Positions 8,517 to 63,300 of a DNA stretch of 64,000 nt are shown piece by piece; the first letter of the stretch is position 1, and each line of letters opens with the position of its first letter. The stretch spans positions 216,132,001 to 216,196,000 of the forward strand of contig OZ024742.1 of the NCBI GenBank assembly GCA_964016885.1, given 5' to 3'. A program made the position numbers and the translations under genes. This DNA comes from Eledone cirrhosa (Eukaryota). The notes under the pieces were generated by a model, which made no database searches, was not told the origin of the DNA, and saw only the letters and a list, made by a program, of their open reading frames with translations.

Positions 8517-8630
8517 ATATATGAATTAGAACCCTGTAACCATTAAGCTCTAAGTATAAAGTACAAATAAATACAGAGCCGATTAACAATATATAGTAAG
8601 AGACACAGTAAACCGTGTGTCTAAAATTAC

Positions 8631-8947
8631 AAGGGTTGAAAAACCACATATGTTTGAAATATTTAACCAAGAAACAGACAGGATGACAAAATGAAAATAA
8701 AAATATATTATCATAATACAAACCGCCTCAATAACCATTATATCTCTCGGACAGATCTCTCGCTGATGAAGCCCAGGATTATCTGTTACAAACACACTCA
8801 GGGCGAAACAGATTAGGGATAATCTGTCCGAGAGATATAATGGTTATTGAGGCGGTTTGTATTATGATAATATATTTTTATTTTCATTTTGTCATCCTGT
8901 CTGATTCTTGGTTAAATATTTCAAACATATGTGGTTTTTCAACCCTT
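8631..8947. repeat. 126-bp inverted repeat (8631-8756 / 8822-8947) around a hammerhead core; Penelope pLTR-like fold-back in (TA)n
   Basis: The arms are near-perfect reverse complements (about 1 mismatch); the insert is bounded by (TA)n tracts. Confidence 0.9.
8755..8836 (+). ncRNA. Type I hammerhead ribozyme with a canonical core
   Basis: Stem I ATCTCTCG/CGAGAGAT; CTGATGA 8763-8769 plus A; stem II GCCC/GGGC; GAAA 8805-8808; stem III ACAGATTA-GGGA-TAATCTGT; GUC triplet with predicted cleavage after 8828. Confidence 0.9.
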
Positions 8948-8948
8948 A

Positions 8949-9623
<675 letters not shown>

Positions 9624-9628
9624 TCTAC

Positions 9629-9828
9629 AGTGTAAGAGGTAATAGGGACGTAAACAAAAGAAGAAAAGTAGCCCTTCGTCAGCTGTTTACTACGGATCAT
9701 AATCCAGAGGCGGTCCGTTACGGATCGATGTCTTGTTTTAAGCGCCGAAACATCTATGATCCAAAGTAAACAGCTGAGGAATGTCTACTTTTCTTCTCGT
9801 GTTTACGTCCCTATTAGCTTCTTACACT
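9629..9828. repeat. Diverged inverted repeat (9629-9701 / 9755-9828), probable Penelope pLTR fold-back
   Basis: agtgtaagaggtaatagggacgtaaac...ggatcata mirrors tatgatcc...gtttacgtccctattagcttcttacact; flanked by (TA)n. Confidence 0.8.
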
Positions 9829-10242: not shown

Positions 10243-10392
10243 AAAACTGTACATATATATATATATGTAGGAGGTGAGTTTTATTGTAGTACAATAAAGC
10301 AATACAGATATCGGATAAGAAGCACTCTACAGTTTGTAGGACTGGAGTATAAATAATATATAAGATCAAAAGATGGTTAAAAGAGTACTATG

Positions 10393-10463
10393 TATTTTAT
10401 TATGCGCATTTCAAAAACAAATATCATCATGCAATAACATTTGCGTTTTCGTCAGATAAAATA
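10393..10463 (-). ncRNA. Type I hammerhead ribozyme (left-arm copy)
   Basis: Exact reverse complement of the motif at 10636-10706. Confidence 0.8.
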
Positions 10464-10635
10464 GGGAGACATGATATGAAGGTTAAAATACACTTGTGAA
10501 TAGTGCAGTTTTAAATCAACATATCATATGTTGATTTAAAACATATCATATGATTTAAAACATATCAACATATGATATGTTGATTTAAAACTGTACTATT
10601 CATAAGTGTATTTTAACCTTCATATCATGTCTCCC

Positions 10636-10706
10636 TATTTTATCTGACGAAAACGCAAATGTTATTGCATGATGATATTTGTTTTTGAAATGCGCATAAT
10701 AAAATA
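10636..10706 (+). ncRNA. Type I hammerhead ribozyme with palindromic stem III (PLE-type)
   Basis: Stem I TATTTTAT/ATAAAATA; CTGACGA 10644-10650; about 16-bp stem II with G-U pairs and one mismatch; GAAA 10687-10690; ATGCGCAT palindrome; AUA triplet. Confidence 0.8.
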
Positions 10707-11726
10707 CATAGTACTCTTTTAACCATCTTTTGATATTATATATTATTTATATATATATATATATATAAAATATATGAAGAGGATTGGCTGTGTAGTTGCT
10801 GGATAAGGTAGGCTTAAACATGAGAATAAGAAGAAAGCAAGAAATAAGTTTTCCTCATCAGTTGCCTGCCAGGGGTCTCGGATATGTCAATGCATTAAAG
10901 ACTATATATCTACCCCCAGTGTGTTCAATAACTAGGTAAGTTATTGGGAAAACGGTGGAGGGAGGTAATGAAAATATAGGATAACAGAAGGTAAAAGGGA
11001 AAAAAGAGAGAAAAGAGAAAAACTGCGAAAAATAACGAAGAAAACGGGAAACAACAAATCGAAGAGTGCGCGAGCAATTTGAAGAAAGAAAAAAATATAT
11101 ATAAGGTGGAAGCTCGTGACGGGATGAGAGGAGATGAATGGATCATCAGTAGAACTCCAATCAAGCTAATGTCTCGTCACTTGTATCCGCCTCTACGCTC
11201 AAAGGGAAGCTGGCCCACCTACTTCATGACTTTTGTTTTGAAGTCTGTTGTAAAAATACATGAAATGTCCATATATGGAATATTTATAATCATAGGCGAT
11301 GCACATCAAGGATGACTCGTTCTGCAACTAAAACACAATATATATATTTCTAAAATGTGGACGAAAAAAGATACGTATGTATTATGATATGCATCACTTT
11401 GGATTGGGTCGTCAGATAATTTAATGGCAGAAAACTTAGTGCCACACCTACGTAGTGAAAATCATGAATTCCAGTATCGGCAATTCGAAACGATTATTCA
11501 TTACGATTTTTAATTTGATGTAACTGTGAATATAACACGATTGATTTCAGACCAGCTGAATACTTCTTCCACAAATGATAATTAACTTCAGTCAAGATCA
11601 AATTTCTCTCAAGAACAATATATAAATTGTTTTAACACTGTTTTAGTAAATCCAGGATTAGATTTTGGATTTAGATTAAGCAATTGTGTAATCAAGATTG
11701 AGCAGTCAACGTAGTGTAGATCCACC

Positions 11727-14706: not shown

Positions 14707-15607
14707 ACAAAATATTAAAACAATCAAATCTTAGTTTAATACATTTATTTGCTGACAATTGTTTTTTCAAGAGGGATGTCTGGAATCATCGGAGTATAGG
14801 GGATGTTTAAACAGGTGATTAAAACCCTAGTCTTCAGAACATTTAGGTATATACATAACTGTTGTCAGTGTCATAGTATAATATACTTACTATAACAACA
14901 TGGCCAGTAATTCAGTGGAATTTATCTTTACCAAACACATATCTATAAACTATACACATCTCAAAACAATTACACCTAAAACTAAGAAGATTCCATGGTT
15001 TATACATTTGAGTCACTCCCAATATATACAACTATATACGAACTCAAATATAACAATTCTTGAATGAAAATTACCTATCTAATTCACTCACGTGCTTCGC
15101 ATTACATCTCACATAACATATACCCCTTTTATCACAACATGTCTCTCTACCATATACCACGCCATTTTTTTTAAATTTAAACATTTCTAACTCTTGTAAC
15201 ATGCTTTTACATTCTACATGAAATATGCTTGTTTCAGCTCTCATATAACTCTTACCTCATAAATGCCTTATTGATTGTATTGACTCTTGCATTATATACC
15301 CTTTACATTATCTGATTTCCAATGCTATGATATCTTCTATCTATCCGATCTTACATTATTTTCTTGCTTGTACCTTTTGCACATGTATTACCTTAAACAA
15401 TACCTTTATACATAATATGCTTATTTTTCACTTTTCACCATTGCTCTTTGTAATTTCTAAAACATAACATTCTTTTAACCTAAATGTTCTGAAGACTAGC
15501 ATTTTAACCGCATGTTTAAACATTCACTATGCACCGATGATACTGGAAGAAATAATTGTCAGCAAATAAATGTATTAAACTAAGATTTGATTGTTATAAT
15601 ATTTTGT
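14707..15607. mobile_element. Penelope-like pLTR remnant with inverted ends (14707-14848 / 15478-15607) and decayed hammerheads
   Basis: The ends are diverged reverse complements; the right arm has CCGATGA..GAAA-TAATTG-TC-AGCA at 15530-15564; the whole insert lies between (TA)n tracts. Confidence 0.65.
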
Positions 15608-15624
15608 GTATATATATATATATA

Positions 15625-15940
15625 TATATTTGAAAAAAAGGAAAACAATGAGTTCAATTGTAGTGTTAAAAGATTTCATTTAATTTTATAATATTATAAT
15701 ATTATGAGTTCGTAGATACAGTAAGTTCTTTGTTAACTTCGGTGGGAAGAATTTTAAAAATTCCTGGTTAACTTGGGCTGGAGAATTTCCTCGCATTCGT
15801 CTGTGGCGATTGTCAAACTGAGATCAAGTTGTGTTGAGATGTGCGACTATATATAAGAGAGATTTGGATGTGCCTGGGGTGTGGCGTGTGGTATTAATGA
15901 TGATGAAGGTCCGGAGAAATTAAAGCATACACACACACAC

Positions 15941-15972
<32 letters not shown>

Positions 15973-16378
15973 GTACACACACATACATACACAAGCACAC
16001 ATATATACACTCAGAAAATGGTGAGGTTGCAAGATATCTTGCAACCTCACCATTTTCTGAGTGTATATATGTATGTATGTGTATGTGTGTGTGTGTACGT
16101 GTGTGTATGTATGCTTTAATTCCTCCAGACCTTCATCTTCATTAATACCACACCCACACTCCAGGCACATCCAAAATCTCTCTTATATATAGTCACACAT
16201 CTCAACACAAGAGAAAGTTCTCCAACCCAAGTAAACCAAGAATCTTTAAAATTCTTCCCACCGAAGTTAACAAAGAACTTACTAGATCTACCAACTCTTA
16301 ATGTTATAATAATATAAAATTAAATCAAACCTTTTAAAACTACAAATGAAGTCATTCTTTTCCTTTTTTTCAAATATA
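15625..16378. repeat. About 750-bp inverted duplication with a perfect 74-bp central palindrome (15999-16072)
   Basis: The outer arms mirror each other, including mirrored (CA)n/(TG)n; the centre ...gttgcaagat|atcttgcaac... has no spacer. Confidence 0.9.
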
Positions 16379-28199: not shown

Positions 28200-28273
28200 T
28201 ATATAAATATATATATATAAAATTAGAATAGGTGCTCTGAAATAGCTATATATATATGAATGTATATATATAG

Positions 28274-28493
28274 TGTATTTTGCAATACACTGTATGCTTA
28301 ATTAAAAGCATTTCGAAGACCTTATGCTATTGTTTTAGAGTAGTGACAGTCTCACTTACTTTAAATTTCAGCAAACAGGAGATTTCTCCTGTTTGCTGAA
28401 AATTAAAGTAAGTGAGACTGTCACTACTCTAAAACAATAGCATAAGGTCTTCGAAATGCTTTTAATTAAGCATACAGTGTATTGCAAAATACA
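28274..28493. repeat. Near-perfect palindrome with 109-bp arms and a 2-nt loop, carrying the 3' half of a hammerhead
   Basis: 28274-28382 and 28385-28493 differ by 1 mismatch, and symmetry continues into the flanking (TA)n; GAAA-TGCTT-ttaatt-AAGCA-TA at 28453-28474. Confidence 0.92.
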
Positions 28494-30145
28494 TTATATA
28501 TACATTCATATATATATATATATATACAAGCATACATATGTCCGTCTGCCTGTGAGTGGGTGGATTCGAATTCCTTATTTATTGACCCCTCATGTTATTC
28601 ATCACATGGGTGAGCATTTTCGCCTATAGTAGCTATTATGTATTATTTTTTCCAAGAATTACTTCTATAAATATTTTGTATACCGTATATATTCTTCAAA
28701 TTTACGATACTGATTAAAATTCCCATTACTCAGGAATCCTTGTACCTTCCCAAATAAATTGATTCGTTATCGTTTCTAGAATATACTTCTGAGATGCTGA
28801 TATCCGTGGGAAGAGGAGATAAAATAATCTATATACCAGGGAAATGTTCGTATCCTAACAGGTGAAACTCTGCTAAAGGCTCCATGAAATAAATTGTGCA
28901 AAGGAGCTAGACAATTGCTGTAAGACATTAATACTGAGGAAGTAAAATATTCAATAATCCATCACACTGAACATATTTGTATTCTAATGACCTAGAAATG
29001 GAGAAAGGGTAGTTTCCTCCAACAGGAATTTAAACCCAGATTGCAAGGAACCGGGTAGATATCGCATATCATTCTATTTCAGGCTCTAAAAATTCCATCA
29101 ATTTTTCCCCTGGGCAATTCACTTGCAAATTATTTCCCTAATAAATAACAGTATACCATAGTATCCTCTCCCCTATTGGTTATTTCTACCAATTCAAATA
29201 TTGTAGAAACAGGAGACGTTTTCATGACATTGTCAACTTTTTACCTACCCACCACCGAAACTATTACCTTGGATAGCAACCAAATGTCTATGGTGAATAT
29301 TATATTTTTCGTTTGATTTAAGAGTCATGTCTAATATTTGAGAGGAAACGGGGATATAGAATAGTATTCAGACATGTCATTTAGATTTTGTAGCACTGCT
29401 AATATTACTTTCGACGAGGATCATTAATCTTTTAGTAGACGCACCGCCACCCCACCCGTGCGGACTAAAGCTGTGAAAATTAGGATAGAACTTTGCAAAC
29501 AGATATTAATTTAAGGAAATAGGTTTTACTCATATTTCCAGGATGCATATTTCATCTACATTTTCACAAGTCATTTATACGTCTTCTCTCATCGAACCTT
29601 AAGACATTTTTATTTCACAAGATGATTGCTCTAACGAACTAGAATATTTTCATTCGTAAGGTTGCACTCCAATCTTTTGCAAATTACCTGGCTCTACTAA
29701 TGGAAATGATGTCTTATTTCTCTCGGCAAAACATCAGAGACGTACAGAGTGAGACAAATCAAAAAGAATATAAATAGAGAAGGAAAGAAAGATTAACCGC
29801 AGCAGACATACATTTGATAGATCTCAAATCTATATCTCTGACATGTCTTGCACCATGCTATTTACTTTCATTACACATTGTCGTTTTTTGAAGTAGAGGA
29901 GATATATATAATACGTGCTTTAAATGCTTACAACAATTTTATCAGTTTAACAAAGAGAATATTTACGCATTTCACTAACAGTATATTACTTATTACCAGA
30001 AAACTTACACCATTTTTACACTTTAATTCTCGCATATATAAATATACTACTGGCCCGTCCGGCTGGCGCTCGGTAGGTATACCTGCCCCCAGCACTCCAC
30101 TGCAAAGATACCTACACACCCTCCAGTGTCACATTGTCCTTTCGA

Positions 30146-43541: not shown

Positions 43542-43558
43542 ATTATTACTATTATTGT

Positions 43559-44046
43559 GGCGGTGGATTGGTAGTATCGATAGAGGGTCGGACGCCTTGC
43601 TTTCCAGCATAGTTACGTCCTTTTACGATCTGAGTTCAAATCCCGCCGAGGTTGACTTTGCCTTTCATCCTTACGGGGTCGATAAAATAAAGTACCAGTA
43701 ATGCACTGGGTATTTGCTGGCCTTGTGCCTAAAGTAGAAACAATTATTACTATTATTGTGGATTAGCAGTATCGGTAGAGGGTCGGATGCCATGCTTTGA
43801 CGTATAGAGTTACGGCCCTTGCCCTTCTGAGTTCAAATCCCGCCGAGATTAACTTTGCCTTTCATCCTTCCGAGGTCGATAAAATAAAGTACCAGTAATG
43901 CCCTGGGTAATTGCTGGCCTTGTGCCAAAAGTAGAAACAATTATTATCAGACGGTGGATTGGCAGAGTCATCAGAGTGTCGGACAAAGGCTTTGTGTATT
44001 TGATGAGTTCAAATCCCACCGAGGTTGATCTTGCCTTCCATTCTTC
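43559..44046 (+). mobile_element. Head-to-tail array of three SINEs (43559-43742, 43758-43947, older 43952-44046)
   Basis: Three successive A-box/B-box heads; the first is flanked by duplicated attattactattattgt (43542-43558 / 43743-43759). Confidence 0.9.
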
Positions 44047-44127
44047 CAGTAAAGGAGAAGGATCGATATAACCTTCTAACACCACCAGAAAATGCGTGAG
44101 CTTCAAGCTATGTTAGAATTTCTTGTG

Positions 44128-44408
44128 GAGGGTCGGACGCCATGCTTTACAGCATAGTTAATGAAATATTTTGTGTAAACCCCTGTGGTTAATAAAGAAA
44201 ACATTATTACTATTATTGTGGCGGTGGATTGGTAGTATCGATAGAGGGTCGGACGCCTTGCTTTCCAGCATAGTTACGTCCTTTTACGATCTGAGTTCAA
44301 ATCCCGCCGAGGTTGACTTTGCCTTTCATCCTTACGGGGTCGATAAAATAAAGTACCAGTAATGCACTGGGAATTGCTGGCCTTGTGCCTAAAGTAGAAA
44401 GAATTATT
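44128..44408 (+). mobile_element. SINE fragment fused to a near-identical copy of 43496-43750 (LINE 3' end plus SINE)
   Basis: 44157-44408 duplicates 43496-43750, with GTTA microhomology at the junction. Confidence 0.9.
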
Positions 44409-45320
44409 GATAAAAGTGCGTGTGCGTGTATCAGGGAGACAGTGAGTGTGACAGTTTTTTTTTAGTTTTTGGCATACATGAGAGACAGAGATTGTGGATA
44501 CATGCGTGTTTGTGTTTCTGTGTGTGTATTTATATGTGTGTGCGTGCGTGTGTGGGTGTGTGTTTGAATGTGTGTGTGAACGTGTGTGAGTGTGTGTGTG
44601 CGTGTATGGGTGTGTGTGAACGTTTCTATTTTACACTATATATATGGAATGACTTCATCCACGCTTCACTAAATATTTCTTGGAAAGTTACCGAAGGAAA
44701 CAGATAGTGCATCCTTTAGAACATCAGGAAGAATATCGGGGATATCTATTTTCTAATCTCTTTAAAGTACAACCCTTCATTCCTTATAGCTTGTGTATTT
44801 CATATTACCTGTATCGTTAATGTACAGGAAGGAAGATGGTGGAAGGCTGAAAATGGCCAATGAGATAGAAAGATACTAAAGATTGCACCTCTTGCCAGAT
44901 TTTACGGTCTATCTAGTCTATAAAATATGTTTAAGTATATACATACATATATATATATATAAATGCGTTTGTGTGTATTTTTTTGTGTGTATATGTGCGT
45001 GTATTTGTAGGTGCCTGTGTAGATAGATATAACTATATTCACCTTATATACATTTTGTAACCTGTAGCATGCTTTCACTAATCATTTTAGGAGGCTATTG
45101 CAGTCACCTGTAGACACAGACGCCATCTTTGTCCCTCATTAACTTCTCGCAATTTATGCGACATCTTCGATATGATAGATCGACATTGAGATGTCTGTCC
45201 TAGCATATGTGTGATATTTTTTTTATTAACCCCGAAAGGTTGAACTGGGAATAACTTAATTTTACAGCGTGGAGACGTAATAAATTTCTCTACTCTCTCT
45301 GTAAATAGTTATATAATAAT

Positions 45321-45505
45321 TGTTTCTACGTTAGGCACAAGGCCAGCAATTACTCAGTGTATTACTGGTACTTTATTTTATCGACCCCGTAAGGATGAAA
45401 AGCAAAGTTAACCTCGGCGGGATTTGAACTCAGAATGGCAAGGGCCGTAACTCTATGCGTCAAAGCATGGCGTCCGACCCTCTACCGATACTGCCATCCA
45501 ACGCC
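45321..45505 (-). mobile_element. SINE family A, 3' moiety of the 5S-SINE chimera
   Basis: Full head (GGCGTTGGATGGCAGTATCGG...GAGTTCAAATCC), core and tail. Confidence 0.92.
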
Positions 45506-45516
45506 ATTTTTTTTAG

Positions 45517-45635
45517 CGCTTACGGCACCTAGTGTTCCCAATCAGTCACCCATCTAAGTACTAACTAGGCTCGACGTTGCTTAACTTCGGTGATCGCACG
45601 AGAACCGGTGTTTTCAGCGTGATACGGCCGTAAAC
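45517..45635 (-). rRNA. Full-length 5S rRNA sequence, a retroposed copy and probably a pseudogene
   Basis: GTTTACGGCCGTATCACGCTGAAAACACCGGTTCTCGTGCGATCACCGAAGTTAAGCAACGTCGAGCCTAGTTAGTACTTAGATGGGTGACTGATTGGGAACACTAGGTGCCGTAAGC; about 119 nt, helix I closes, box A and box C present; followed by A8 rather than an oligo-T terminator. Confidence 0.95.
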
Positions 45636-52712: not shown

Positions 52713-52779
52713 TATTTTATCTGATGAGGAAGTACTCTTGAAGTTAACTCAGTACCTCTGAAATATGTATAATAAAATA
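52713..52779 (+). ncRNA. Type I hammerhead ribozyme in the inverted pLTR
   Basis: Stem I TATTTTAT/ATAAAATA; CTGATGA 52721-52727; stem II GGAAGTACT/AGTACCTCT; GAAA 52760-52763; ATATGTAT quasi-palindrome; AUA triplet. Confidence 0.8.
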
Positions 52780-52826
52780 TACTTGATCACAAGAATATCT
52801 ATTTTGTTAATATTTTGAATTAATAT

Positions 52827-55482: not shown

Positions 55483-55510
55483 GTATATATATATATATAT
55501 ATATATAGAT

Positions 55511-55563
55511 GAGATTCTACAGGACTAGAACTGTTTCATTCATTAGAAATCATCAGGAATCCC
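55511..55563 (-). ncRNA. Stand-alone type I hammerhead ribozyme between two (TA)n tracts
   Basis: GGGATTC-CTGATGA-T-TTC/GAA-T-GAAA-CAG-ttctagtc-CTG-TA-GAATCTC; GUA triplet; the first stem II pair is a U-U mismatch. Confidence 0.75.
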
Positions 55564-55812: not shown

Positions 55813-55840
55813 AAGAGTGAAGAATAACATGGTCAACAGT

Positions 55841-56029
55841 ACAAAAAGTGTTTTATTTACAGTATTAACAATTGTTTCATTGATTACGGTGTCTAAAGAT
55901 TGCTAATCACTTGAAGTTAGTCCGATGATTTGATTAGGCATACATGTATTTAAGATTGGGTGACACAATTTCAAGTGATTAGCAATCAATTAAACAATTG
56001 TTAATACTGTAAATAGAACCATTTTTGTA
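55841..56029. repeat. Diverged inverted repeat enclosing a decayed hammerhead
   Basis: tatttacagtattaacaattgttt..gctaatcacttgaa mirrors ttcaagtgattagc..aaacaattgttaatactgtaaata; CCGATGA at 55922-55928 and the ACAATTGT palindrome. Confidence 0.75.
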
Positions 56030-56031
56030 GT

Positions 56032-56230
56032 GGTGAAGGCGTGTGGCTGAGTGGTTAGAGAATTATATTCGCAATCCTGAGGTTGTGAGTTCGATTCCCG
56101 GACCGGGCGATGCGTTATGTCCTTGAACAAGACACTTTATTTCACGTTGCTCATTCTACCTGGAGTTGCGACCGATAGATAGTATTAGCAATTGGAAAGA
56201 CCAATGGAAACGTTGTTTCCTCGGTCCGAT
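56032..56230 (+). mobile_element. tRNA-derived SINE family B (different central domain)
   Basis: A-box TGGCTGAGTGG and B-box GAGTTCGATTCC, then TGTCCTTGAACAAGACACTTTATTTCACGTTGCTC (CORE/V-like domain); 3' limit approximate. Confidence 0.8.
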
Positions 56231-60330: not shown

Positions 60331-63300
60331 TTTTCTTTATTAACCACAAGGGTTTACATAAAGTAGACATTAAGGACAGTACAGGAGAATAGAGGACGGT
60401 ACAATTTGGCATTTCTGCGTGTAAAAAAACGATAACAGAGGATGTAACAAAAAATAACAACGAAAAATTCCCCAATAGGGGGGAGACTTCCGAGGGACAT
60501 TTGTGGAGAAAGCCCATTAAAAGGCCACACTGACCCTGCCTACCAGGGTAAGAGCCCTCTCCCAGTTTTCCACCTTTAATTTACAGACACATACTTAGAG
60601 TAGGCCCATTCACTCGGGCCATACTTGCTTCTCTCACCCATCTTTCAACAAAATGCTGGGAAGAGAGCACTTCCCTCTCTACCCTGATTTTCCTTTTAAA
60701 ATGAAATTTAAAAAAGTTAATCAGGGCATCACCGAAGAGGTAAGTGCTCGTCTTCAGCCCTTTCAAAAGTGTCCACCATACTATCTCTTTCGCCATGGCC
60801 ACCAGGCAGATAAAAACTGCCTGCCCTTCCCGGTTAAAGGAAGAAGGCGGGGCAATCCTCACGATGGACTCAGTTGATAGCCGGATCCGTCCTACACGCG
60901 ACAGCAGGTGTTCGACATAAACCCACAAGTCAGCAATGCTCGGACATTGGACTAGTGTATGCAGGACGGTTTCGTCGCCCTGCGCGCATCTCGGACATGC
61001 CCGCCTGACGGCACCTCCATGCCTGTATAGTTTATCCCGAACTGGCAAAGCTCCTCGGTAGCACTGCCAGGCCAGGGATTTCTGGAAGTTGTCCATAGGC
61101 CCCGGCCCGAAAGTTCTTCTGAAGAGATTGGCTAGTTAATTTTCGTCGACGCCTAGGGTTTCCCCAAGTACGTCGCCGCTCTTCCTCTCCACTAATCCTC
61201 TATAGAACGCTGAGGTTGAGTTTCCACCGATCACATTGCCCAATTGGTCGAGGGCTGTGAGCACCTGAAGACATTCCAGTCCCCAAATGCTCCCTCTCGG
61301 TCTTCGCTTGACCCAGGACTGCAGCTCCGTCAAGGAGACAAGCTGGGGAAAGACGCGTCTAGAAAACGGCGACCACGCCTGATCCCCATCGAGGAAGAGG
61401 TGGAGATATCGTAGCCTGAGCGCGTGTCTGCGCATCATCAGCCACGACATGCCCAGCCCTCCATGTAGCGGGTGTTGGCAGCAGATGGACTGCCTGACCT
61501 TCGGAACGCGTCCCTTCCACAAAAAGCGAAAGAGGAAACGCTCCAACGCAGTCAGCCGGGGCTTAGGACAAGGTACGACGGTCAGGCTGTAGTAGATGAC
61601 GGACGCGATGTACACGTTAGCCACCTCCACCCGACCTTTCAGGGATAGCTTCCCCTCCGCCCATTTCTGGGTGAGAGAAGCCACCCTGCTCGTCACCTCG
61701 TCCCAGTTTTTGTCCGTCTGGAGGTCCGGACCGAACCAAACCCATAGCAATTTAACCGGTCCGTCCGTCCAACGCCCCACGACGCTGTTGGACGGCATGG
61801 ACCTGCCTCTCAAGGCGCCGAGCTGCAGGCCCACTGACTTGTCCTGGTTGATCATTGCTCCTGTCACCGCTTCGTATTCTCTTAGTGTAGTGCCGATCGC
61901 CTCGATGTGTTTGGCGTTCGACACCACTACGGTGACATCTTCCGCATATGCTGACACGGATCTTCCGCATCCTACTTCGCGCGGGACCCCCCTCAACGTC
62001 TCCAATCTGTGCAATAATGGCTCGAGAGTCAATACGCAAAAGAGGGACGAGAGGGAACATCCTTGGCAGACTGAGCGCATGAAGTTGACCGTTCACTCTC
62101 ACCACAGAGCAGATGTCGCTGTGCATGGCAGCGATCCAGCCTCTGAAGACGGGCCCAAAGCCAGCCGCCTTCAGGACTGCCGCTAAGTAACGATGGTCAA
62201 CCATATCGAAAGCATTCTACTGATCTAAATTGATCAAGGACCCACCTGGCCAGGTTCCCTAGCTACCCTCTCTACGATATATCGCATGAGGTGGAGGTTG
62301 TCGTGGATGGATCTGTCGGGAATGGCGCATGTCTGCGCCTCTCCCACCAGACCACCAACGAGAAATGCCAACCTCTTTGCTAGCACCTTGGCCAAAATCT
62401 TGAACTCTGTGTTTAGCAGAGTTATGGGCCTGAAATTATCTATGTTATCCCCTTGTTCGCTTCCTTTCTTAGCAGCGCCACCGCTCATCGGCTCACAGTT
62501 CTGTGAAATTCTCCCGTTCTGTTGCCAGTTGCAGTAGATGTCCGCCAAGAGGCCTCCGAACAAGTCTGGCCTCTGTACGTAAAGTTCATAGGGTAGACCA
62601 TCCAAACCAGGCGATTTACCGCTTGCGCAGCCAGTCGTTGCCTCCCGTACATCAGCGGCTTTTATCGGCTTTTCGCAACACTCCGTCTCAGTGGCCGAGA
62701 GCCGCGGCAGTCCGTCGAGGTAGAAACTAAAGTCCATCTCTCGATCCGGCCCGCCGCTGCCCCCTAACAGCTGAGCGAAATGTTGCTGAAAAGTTTCGCA
62801 CATTTACCGGGGATCGAGTAACATGCGACCGTCGTAGTCCACCAAAGACCGGATCGTGGCTTTGTTGCCACGATGCGCCTCCGCCACTCGGGCCCATTGA
62901 ACGGCTTTCGTCCCCTCGTGTCTGACAGCACGCAGCCTAGCTCTGACAACGCAGCCTCCCAGCTTTTCATTGAAGAATTGGCCAAGGGCCAATTTCGCAG
63001 CAAGTACGTCGGTGGCGATGCCTTTGCTAAGCGCCTCGTCTAATTTTCTAACTAATTCTCCCTCTACTCTATTTTTCTCTATTGCTAAAGCCTTACTAAA
63101 CCTAATGGACTCTATTCTAATCGCCCTTTTCAGAGCAAACCACCACTTGATGTTGACGATGACCCCGTCAACGCTCGTTTAACTAGTTCGCTAATCCGGT
63201 CTCTGTAGACCTTGCGCGCTGGTAAGGACGCGTTTAGCTTCCAGTAGCCGGGTCCTCGTCTATGAAGCCTATCTAAGTCAAGTACACAGATCACGAATTT

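Follow-up and report, generated by a model that had tools for sequence, protein, structure and literature searches.

What is a hammerhead ribozyme doing beside an antisense copy of part of itself? In the 64,000-nt stretch of Eledone cirrhosa DNA that we analysed (hereafter the window), two inverted arms of 126 nt each, at positions 8631–8756 and 8822–8947, differ at a single site (8674/8904) and enclose a 65-nt spacer. The left arm is antisense to the 3′ strand of helix III, the cleavage site and the 3′ strand of helix I of a hammerhead sequence, and it does not include the catalytic core; apart from the one mismatch, it has the complementarity to the cleavage site and helix I that an earlier note had described. 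That note took the arrangement for a possible folding switch. Our analysis points to insertion instead: very probably, 8596–8947 is one insertion of a multi-copy hammerhead repeat, likely the 5′-truncated 3′ end either of a Penelope-like element (PLE) or of a non-coding element moved by one, in which the inverted copy would silence the ribozyme. In either case, the inverted, truncated copy likely arose during insertion.

The plus strand of 8755–8836 is an intact-looking type I hammerhead sequence. Helix I has 8 bp (8755–8762 with 8829–8836, from sequence and fold) and leads into the core motif CTGATGA (C3–A9; 8763–8769), which is followed at 8770 by an extra base between positions 9 and 10.1 that the earlier description lacked and that is A here but often T in the family. 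Helix II, of 4 bp in the fold (8771–8774 with 8801–8804) and predicted to extend, closes a 26-nt loop; GAAA (8805–8808), with G12, A13 and A14, is placed by both sequence and fold. Helix III has 8 bp in the fold (8808–8815 with 8820–8827) and is closed by a 4-nt loop, which is variable among family members. Cleavage is predicted between 8828 and 8829, directly after the GUC triplet (GTC at 8826–8828, in the segment 8826–8829). All core nucleotides in the list that we used, which follows part of PMC3088659 (C3 U4 G5 A6 N7 G8 A9, G12 A13 A14, A15.1–U16.1 and H17), are present, and three helices are predicted, with helix I open and helices II and III closed. The GUC hammerhead with a full core, three stems and an 8-bp helix III that the earlier note had drawn is therefore there to be found.

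For 8755–8836, the minimum-energy and centroid predictions both give the hammerhead, with a z score of −2.54 (2 of 200 shuffles fold as well) and a predicted pair probability of 0.98 for helix III. A descriptor scan found 5 hammerhead-like motifs in the window, compared with 28 in all 200 block-shuffled windows together, none of which held a motif as strong as the hammerhead at 8755–8836. The Rfam hammerhead covariance models gave no match, either at the gathering score or at E values up to 10; our guess is that the models miss it owing to the extra base and the length of loop II. Rfam did return hairpin-type microRNA matches at the locus, below the cut-offs, which we rejected as caused by the long stem. 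We also rejected by inspection an alternative hammerhead that would use loop II as its substrate, as the bases that follow cannot form helix I. The ribozyme of the parent family was likely functional and probably capable of monomeric cleavage; with its long helix III, it would count among the animal PLE-type hammerheads that are simpler to assay as monomers.

We then asked what the antisense arm would do to such a ribozyme, using constrained partition functions, models outside of which pseudoknots, tertiary contacts and kinetics fall. Transcripts starting at 8751–8756, free of the upstream arm, are predicted to adopt the hammerhead in a fraction of about 0.6, in line with the monomer fold that had been suggested. 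This fraction falls to 0.05 or less for a start at 8749, to between 1e-7 and 1e-6 at 8745, and to between 2e-13 and 5e-16 when the whole arm is present, so the idea that read-through double-stranded RNA blocks the ribozyme holds up in prediction. In a growing transcript, the arm is predicted to have captured the cleavage site once position 8832 is reached, when helix I is still incomplete. Read-through RNA of this copy is thus predicted to be a 126-bp hairpin that is unable to cleave. The permissive starts are predicted to span about 10 nt (8750–8759) and to lie mostly outside the spacer; the proposal that a transcript starting inside the spacer would cleave survives only for starts at the very beginning of the 65-nt spacer, beyond which helix I is lost.

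A second element of the proposed switch was a pairing between the loop II segment ATCTGTT (8781–8787) and AACAGAT at the junction of the core and helix III (8807–8813). Both segments are present and complementary, but the pairing is weak and close to chance: a loop II complement of at least 7 nt arises in 844 of 20,000 loop shuffles (4%), the predicted probability of the pairing is about 0.01, and we rejected it as a switch because it lies 3.8 kcal/mol above the hammerhead fold. The same loop segment is also complementary to 8750–8756, in the 5′ flank, which, should loop II pair at all, is an equally good partner (−6.1 versus −5.7 kcal/mol for the isolated duplexes), and the CAGAT portion of that strand is native to the family. 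The possible pairing between loop II and the 5′ flank comprises 5–7 bp, with no covariation seen. Eleven loop positions (8777–8787) carry no substitution among those listed, a run that is not significant by itself (about 0.1). According to the survey reported in part of PMC3088659, pseudoknots between helix I and the helix II region stabilise about 40% of hammerheads; an activating contact between loop II and the 5′ flank, with 8781–8787 as a possible pseudoknot partner, is therefore at least as plausible as a switch pairing.

To place the locus in its family, we aligned 4 of 11 listed public runs to 8755–8947 at 82% likeness, a threshold that favours conserved parts. Run X1 may share its source with the window, X9 comes from another sample and study, and X5 comes from another organism. 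In total, 149 contigs of X1, 11 of X4, 4 of X5 and 274 reads of X9 aligned. The hammerhead repeat is a dispersed multi-copy family. Substitutions are listed mainly for loops II and III, the extra base and the 3′ flank. Among those listed, 1 of 51 core and helix positions is variable, compared with 30 of 142 others (Fisher p 0.0006), a contrast that would vanish if the ten less-supported variants beyond those listed all fell in the core and helices. The sole listed core or helix variant changes a C–G pair to U–G and keeps the pair; no double compensatory change was seen. We take this conservation to reflect selection in active ancestors, where the ribozyme would have had a stable helix III, rather than selection on the copy at 8596–8947. 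Searches of the literature, covering part of it and main texts, found no description of this particular family; short ribozyme motifs searched in paper texts returned unrelated papers only, and a degenerate ribozyme-motif scan of metagenome and viral contigs gave 0 matches.

Upstream of the ribozyme, the family differs from this locus. Non-antisense upstream sequence was found in 36 reads of X9 (mean depth about 61) and in 9 contigs of X1, 1 of X4 and 1 of X5, and the family's upstream loose ends share their last 13 letters. These upstream letters are visible for loose ends, 30 letters each, and not for reads that cross the left end; among the joints listed for the 4 runs, none changes strand. 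Contig 9 of X4 matches 8755–8862 exactly and extends 125 letters further left, which is neutral with regard to the hairpin. Judged by these upstream sequences, the antisense arm is a feature of this insertion and not of the family. The family's upstream sequence ends in a splice-acceptor-like stretch (T-rich, then CAG) at the 5′ end of helix I. In Drosophila virilis Penelope, a splice-acceptor-like sequence has reportedly been noted at the equivalent place.

These results bear directly on the switch, in which the arm would have been retained for its effect of shielding read-through RNA and leaving RNA with an internal start free to cleave. The folding models do predict two states, and the core is intact. 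However, other family copies carry upstream sequence that is not antisense, the permissive start window is narrow, no host gene was found nearby among the 147 of 304 open stretches compared with Pfam, and the neighbourhood contains similar fold-backs whose hammerheads are decayed or minimal. The arms differ at 1 of 126 sites, which indicates a young locus with little time for selection to show. We therefore hold the switch to be very improbable. The arm is specific to this insertion and comes with a PLE-type one-sided tail and TA flanks, and it is most likely an ordinary PLE-type insertion scar rather than an evolved on/off switch. The locus is not evidence of a new regulatory switch.

Could the hairpin instead be a fold-back artefact of assembly or library preparation? 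The strand-changing junction appears in no listed read or contig, and the flanks are long microsatellites, as an artefact might have it; but a junction of this kind would not be expected to be crossed by short-read contigs or RAD-seq. The left arm holds family sequence that is absent from the right arm and that copying of the right arm cannot supply, its letter at the mismatch is a known family letter, and the other fold-backs of the window range from about 89% to 99% in arm identity. An artefact is on this evidence hard to credit.

The ends of the insertion show how it is built. On the left, it meets a short TA run (8590–8595), which may be a remnant of the target, and on the right a long (TA)n microsatellite (8950–9624). 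Between the left TA run and the left arm lies a tail of 35 nt (8596–8630, minus strand) that continues the 3′ end of the element, contains an AC-rich stem-loop and has no counterpart in the right arm, so that both ends meet (TA)n and only the left one carries a tail; its final 6 nt are assigned solely from the TA boundary. Compared by eye, the minus strand from 8631 to 8602 matches the X9 loose ends in 26 of 30 letters, and the loose end behind 8946 is displayed by 22 reads of that run. The earlier coordinates, 8631–8947, had the arms right and missed these roughly 35 nt on the left. Next comes the inverted, 5′-truncated copy of the element's 3′ end (8631–8756, minus strand, 126 nt), delimited by comparison of the arms. 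At its junction with the plus-strand element stands a 5-nt microhomology, CAGAT (8752–8756), which agrees with the inverted arm and equally with what the family itself has 5′ of helix I; in 4 of 4 runs, the loose ends before 8756 end in CAGAT. Beyond the hammerhead, the remainder of the element's 3′ end, without the tail, occupies 8837–8947 on the plus strand, the right arm having begun at 8822. Letters that are rare in the family are common to both arms, for example at 8891, 8896 and 8928, which fits a single source element.

Long inverted repeats between TA dinucleotides resemble Tc1/mariner MITEs, and the locus has this appearance, as if a foldback or MITE-type DNA transposon had enclosed a hammerhead by chance between its terminal inverted repeats. 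The family's upstream side, however, is not the inverse of its downstream side; moreover, one end of the insertion is 35 nt longer than the other, and the boundary of the arm falls within the ribozyme. We regard a transposon of this type as the least credible account of the locus, with next to no weight.

A PLE insertion would account for the same features. Passages of PMC8557442 (Craig and colleagues) describe PLE insertions with an inverted, 5′-truncated copy adjacent at the 5′ end and a 30–40-bp tail, often at one end only, and PLEs with hammerheads in their pLTRs and (TA)n targets; part of PMC4209133 gives the extra base between positions 9 and 10.1 as a feature of PLE hammerheads. The locus has a hammerhead near its 3′ end with an extra base after A9, an inverted, 5′-truncated copy directly upstream, a tail in the 30–40-bp range (35 nt) at one end only, and a position in TA-rich or (TA)n DNA, in a window in which TA runs are common. 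On this architecture, a link to a PLE protein is the most likely one. No PLE reverse transcriptase or GIY-YIG domain was found in 147 of 304 open stretches compared with Pfam, which yielded a LINE-type reverse transcriptase about 52 kb away and three low-complexity matches below the cut-off. The long helix III, unlike that of the animal PLE hammerheads described, and the missing Rfam match likewise count against a PLE. Broken LINE-type reverse transcriptase frames lie on the minus strand at 60584–62803, in a GC-rich stretch (RVT_1 below the cut-off, zf-RVT above it), and are unrelated to the hammerhead locus.

How might a PLE have produced the hairpin? In vitro, as reported in parts of PMC11167929, the protein of an Anolis PLE nicks and extends both strands of AT-rich DNA, with two start sites of reverse transcription that bound the tail and with uncleaved RNA as the main template. 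By analogy, a PLE protein may have made a nick in each strand of TA-rich DNA and primed a pair of cDNAs. The first, begun at the far start site and including the tail, would have become the left arm; the other would have started about 35 nt further in, without the tail, and run through the ribozyme. The two cDNAs would then have annealed at CAGAT, and the gaps would have been filled in. This two-cDNA model, which we infer from one junction, resembles the twin priming of L1 as described in part of PMC2837659. The left arm covers the scissile bond and at least 2 nt beyond it, up to 7 with the microhomology, and the parent's upstream sequence cannot supply those 2. Because the left cDNA passes the scissile bond, its template was likely uncleaved RNA, in agreement with the in vitro finding. 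The locus is probably an instance of the inverted-plus-tail PLE insertions already known, a clean and young one whose two breakpoints can be read to the base, and as such it is useful for the problem, as yet unsolved, of how inverted copies of PLEs come about.

In this genome, such fold-backs are nothing unusual. We examined 8 local fold-backs in the window, leaving aside inverted pairs taken for dispersed SINE copies and pure microsatellites. A one-sided stretch of 27–37 nt between arm and TA run is present in 4 of the 8 (8596–8947, 9629–9828, 15625–16378 and 28247–28518); of the other four, two have extensions of 81 and 105 nt and two have no TA run on one side. TA runs as such are common in the window. 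The neighbour at 9629–9828, with 65 of 73 aligned letters alike, lies between TA runs, has a 37-nt one-sided tail to about 9865 and holds in its 53-nt spacer a decayed hammerhead-like core, the loop of which contains a short complement of the bases after GAAA. The next, at 10348–10751, is a near-perfect palindrome (185 of 188) that ends in a TA run and carries in each arm a minimal hammerhead with a palindromic helix III (10644 on the plus strand and 10455 on the minus strand). Further fold-backs lie beside TA runs at 2826–2911, 14707–15607, 15625–16378 (one-sided extension of 33 nt), 28247–28518 (27 nt; GAAA and then a hairpin, perhaps a decayed hammerhead) and 55833–56036.

The window also contains hammerhead-like sequences outside fold-backs. 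A minimal type I hammerhead at 52721 (plus strand, about 52713–52780) lies about 50 nt before a TA run and shares its helix I sequence with the one at 10644. At about 55505–55563, on the minus strand, an insert of roughly 60 nt that is little more than a hammerhead-like motif sits inside a long TA microsatellite. Among the dispersed repeats, a SINE-like one at 45313–45506, with more copies at 43558–44408, adjoins a full 5S rRNA match (45517–45635, minus strand, 102 bits).

A different origin for the family would be a non-autonomous tandem retrozyme, a short repeat with a type I hammerhead and circular RNA, of which this locus would be a lone, folded-back monomer bearing a PLE-made scar. The locus has no coding frame with a Pfam match, a deep 287-nt contig in X4 spans the whole stretch, and a 2026 preprint (10.64898/2026.07.22.740005), in the part that bears on this point, traces animal retrozymes back to PLE pLTRs and also records solo monomers. 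Against this stand the single unit at the locus, with no head-to-tail repeat, and the fact that no joint going back was found among those listed, although at 30 letters per loose end a longer unit is possible. In addition, a reading frame without stops extends from loop II across the tail (as in 710 of 20,000 shuffles), weakly like the start of a PLE open reading frame. The T that is common in the family at 8770 creates an ATG at the start of helix II. We consider a retrozyme family possible but unlikely.

Returning to the PLE insertion, one extension of it deserves mention as a doubtful proposal, for which our expectation is low. In a monomer-competent animal PLE-type family, loop II and the CAGAU immediately 5′ of helix I might form a pseudoknot, and the short CAGAT/ATCTG repeats might steer cDNA joining into the ribozyme, giving rise to self-silencing hairpins. 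If this were true, inverted insertions would repeatedly break inside the ribozyme, and the family would contain a built-in source of long double-stranded RNA against itself. In its favour, CAGAT ends the upstream loose ends in 4 of 4 runs, the loop segment has no listed change, and the neighbouring fold-back at 9629–9828 likewise breaks within a hammerhead-like core. Against it, there is no covariation, no inversion joint occurs among those listed, and the fold-back at 10348–10751 breaks about 80 nt upstream of its hammerhead.

We finally compared the locus with known systems, using the relevant parts of the published accounts. With the PLE insertions of PMC8557442 it shares the inverted, truncated copy upstream, the 35-nt tail at one end, the TA target and the 3′ hammerhead; it differs in having no open reading frame and in that both halves are shorter than 200 nt. 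Naiads are without canonical hammerheads, which makes a canonical PLE clade (Penelope/Poseidon, Neptune, Nematis or Hydra) more likely. With the PLE type I hammerheads described in PMC4209133, the ribozyme has in common its topology, full core, extra base between positions 9 and 10.1 and the G10.1–C11.1 pair, and differs from them in a helix I of 7–8 bp and a loop II of 26 nt; passages of the same source note motif pairs 100–700 bp apart on opposite strands. The minimal hammerhead class has an absent or short palindromic helix III and depends on dimers, and an 8-bp helix III places this ribozyme outside it. The earlier remark that it is unlike minimal PLE hammerheads is borne out for animals, in which, as far as PMC4209133 describes them, helix III is minimal or palindromic rather than a full 8-bp stem with a variable loop; from fungi and protists, the same source describes PLE hammerheads with a large helix III like the one here.

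The Anolis Poseidon element PAc, as described in parts of PMC11167929, likewise has a tail beyond its main 3′ end with an AC-rich stem-loop, and its open reading frame starts at the beginning of helix II, where the family T at 8770 would make an ATG. Uncleaved RNA serves as its template, as is likely here; the PAc ribozyme needed protein to cleave, whereas the ribozyme at this locus is predicted to fold alone. Animal non-LTR retrozymes (PMC7229834; 10.64898/2026.07.22.740005), in the portions that treat their structure, are similarly non-coding and multi-copy with a type I hammerhead, but the locus is inverted and tailed rather than tandem. Like the pseudoknotted hammerheads of PMC3088659, in the part that covers them, it might allow loop II to form 5–7 base pairs with the strand beside helix I; no covariation was seen in its family. 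All of the PLE structural features that we tested are present, and, judged from its sequence, the locus most likely corresponds to what a truncated, inverted insertion leaves of a canonical PLE's 3′ end.
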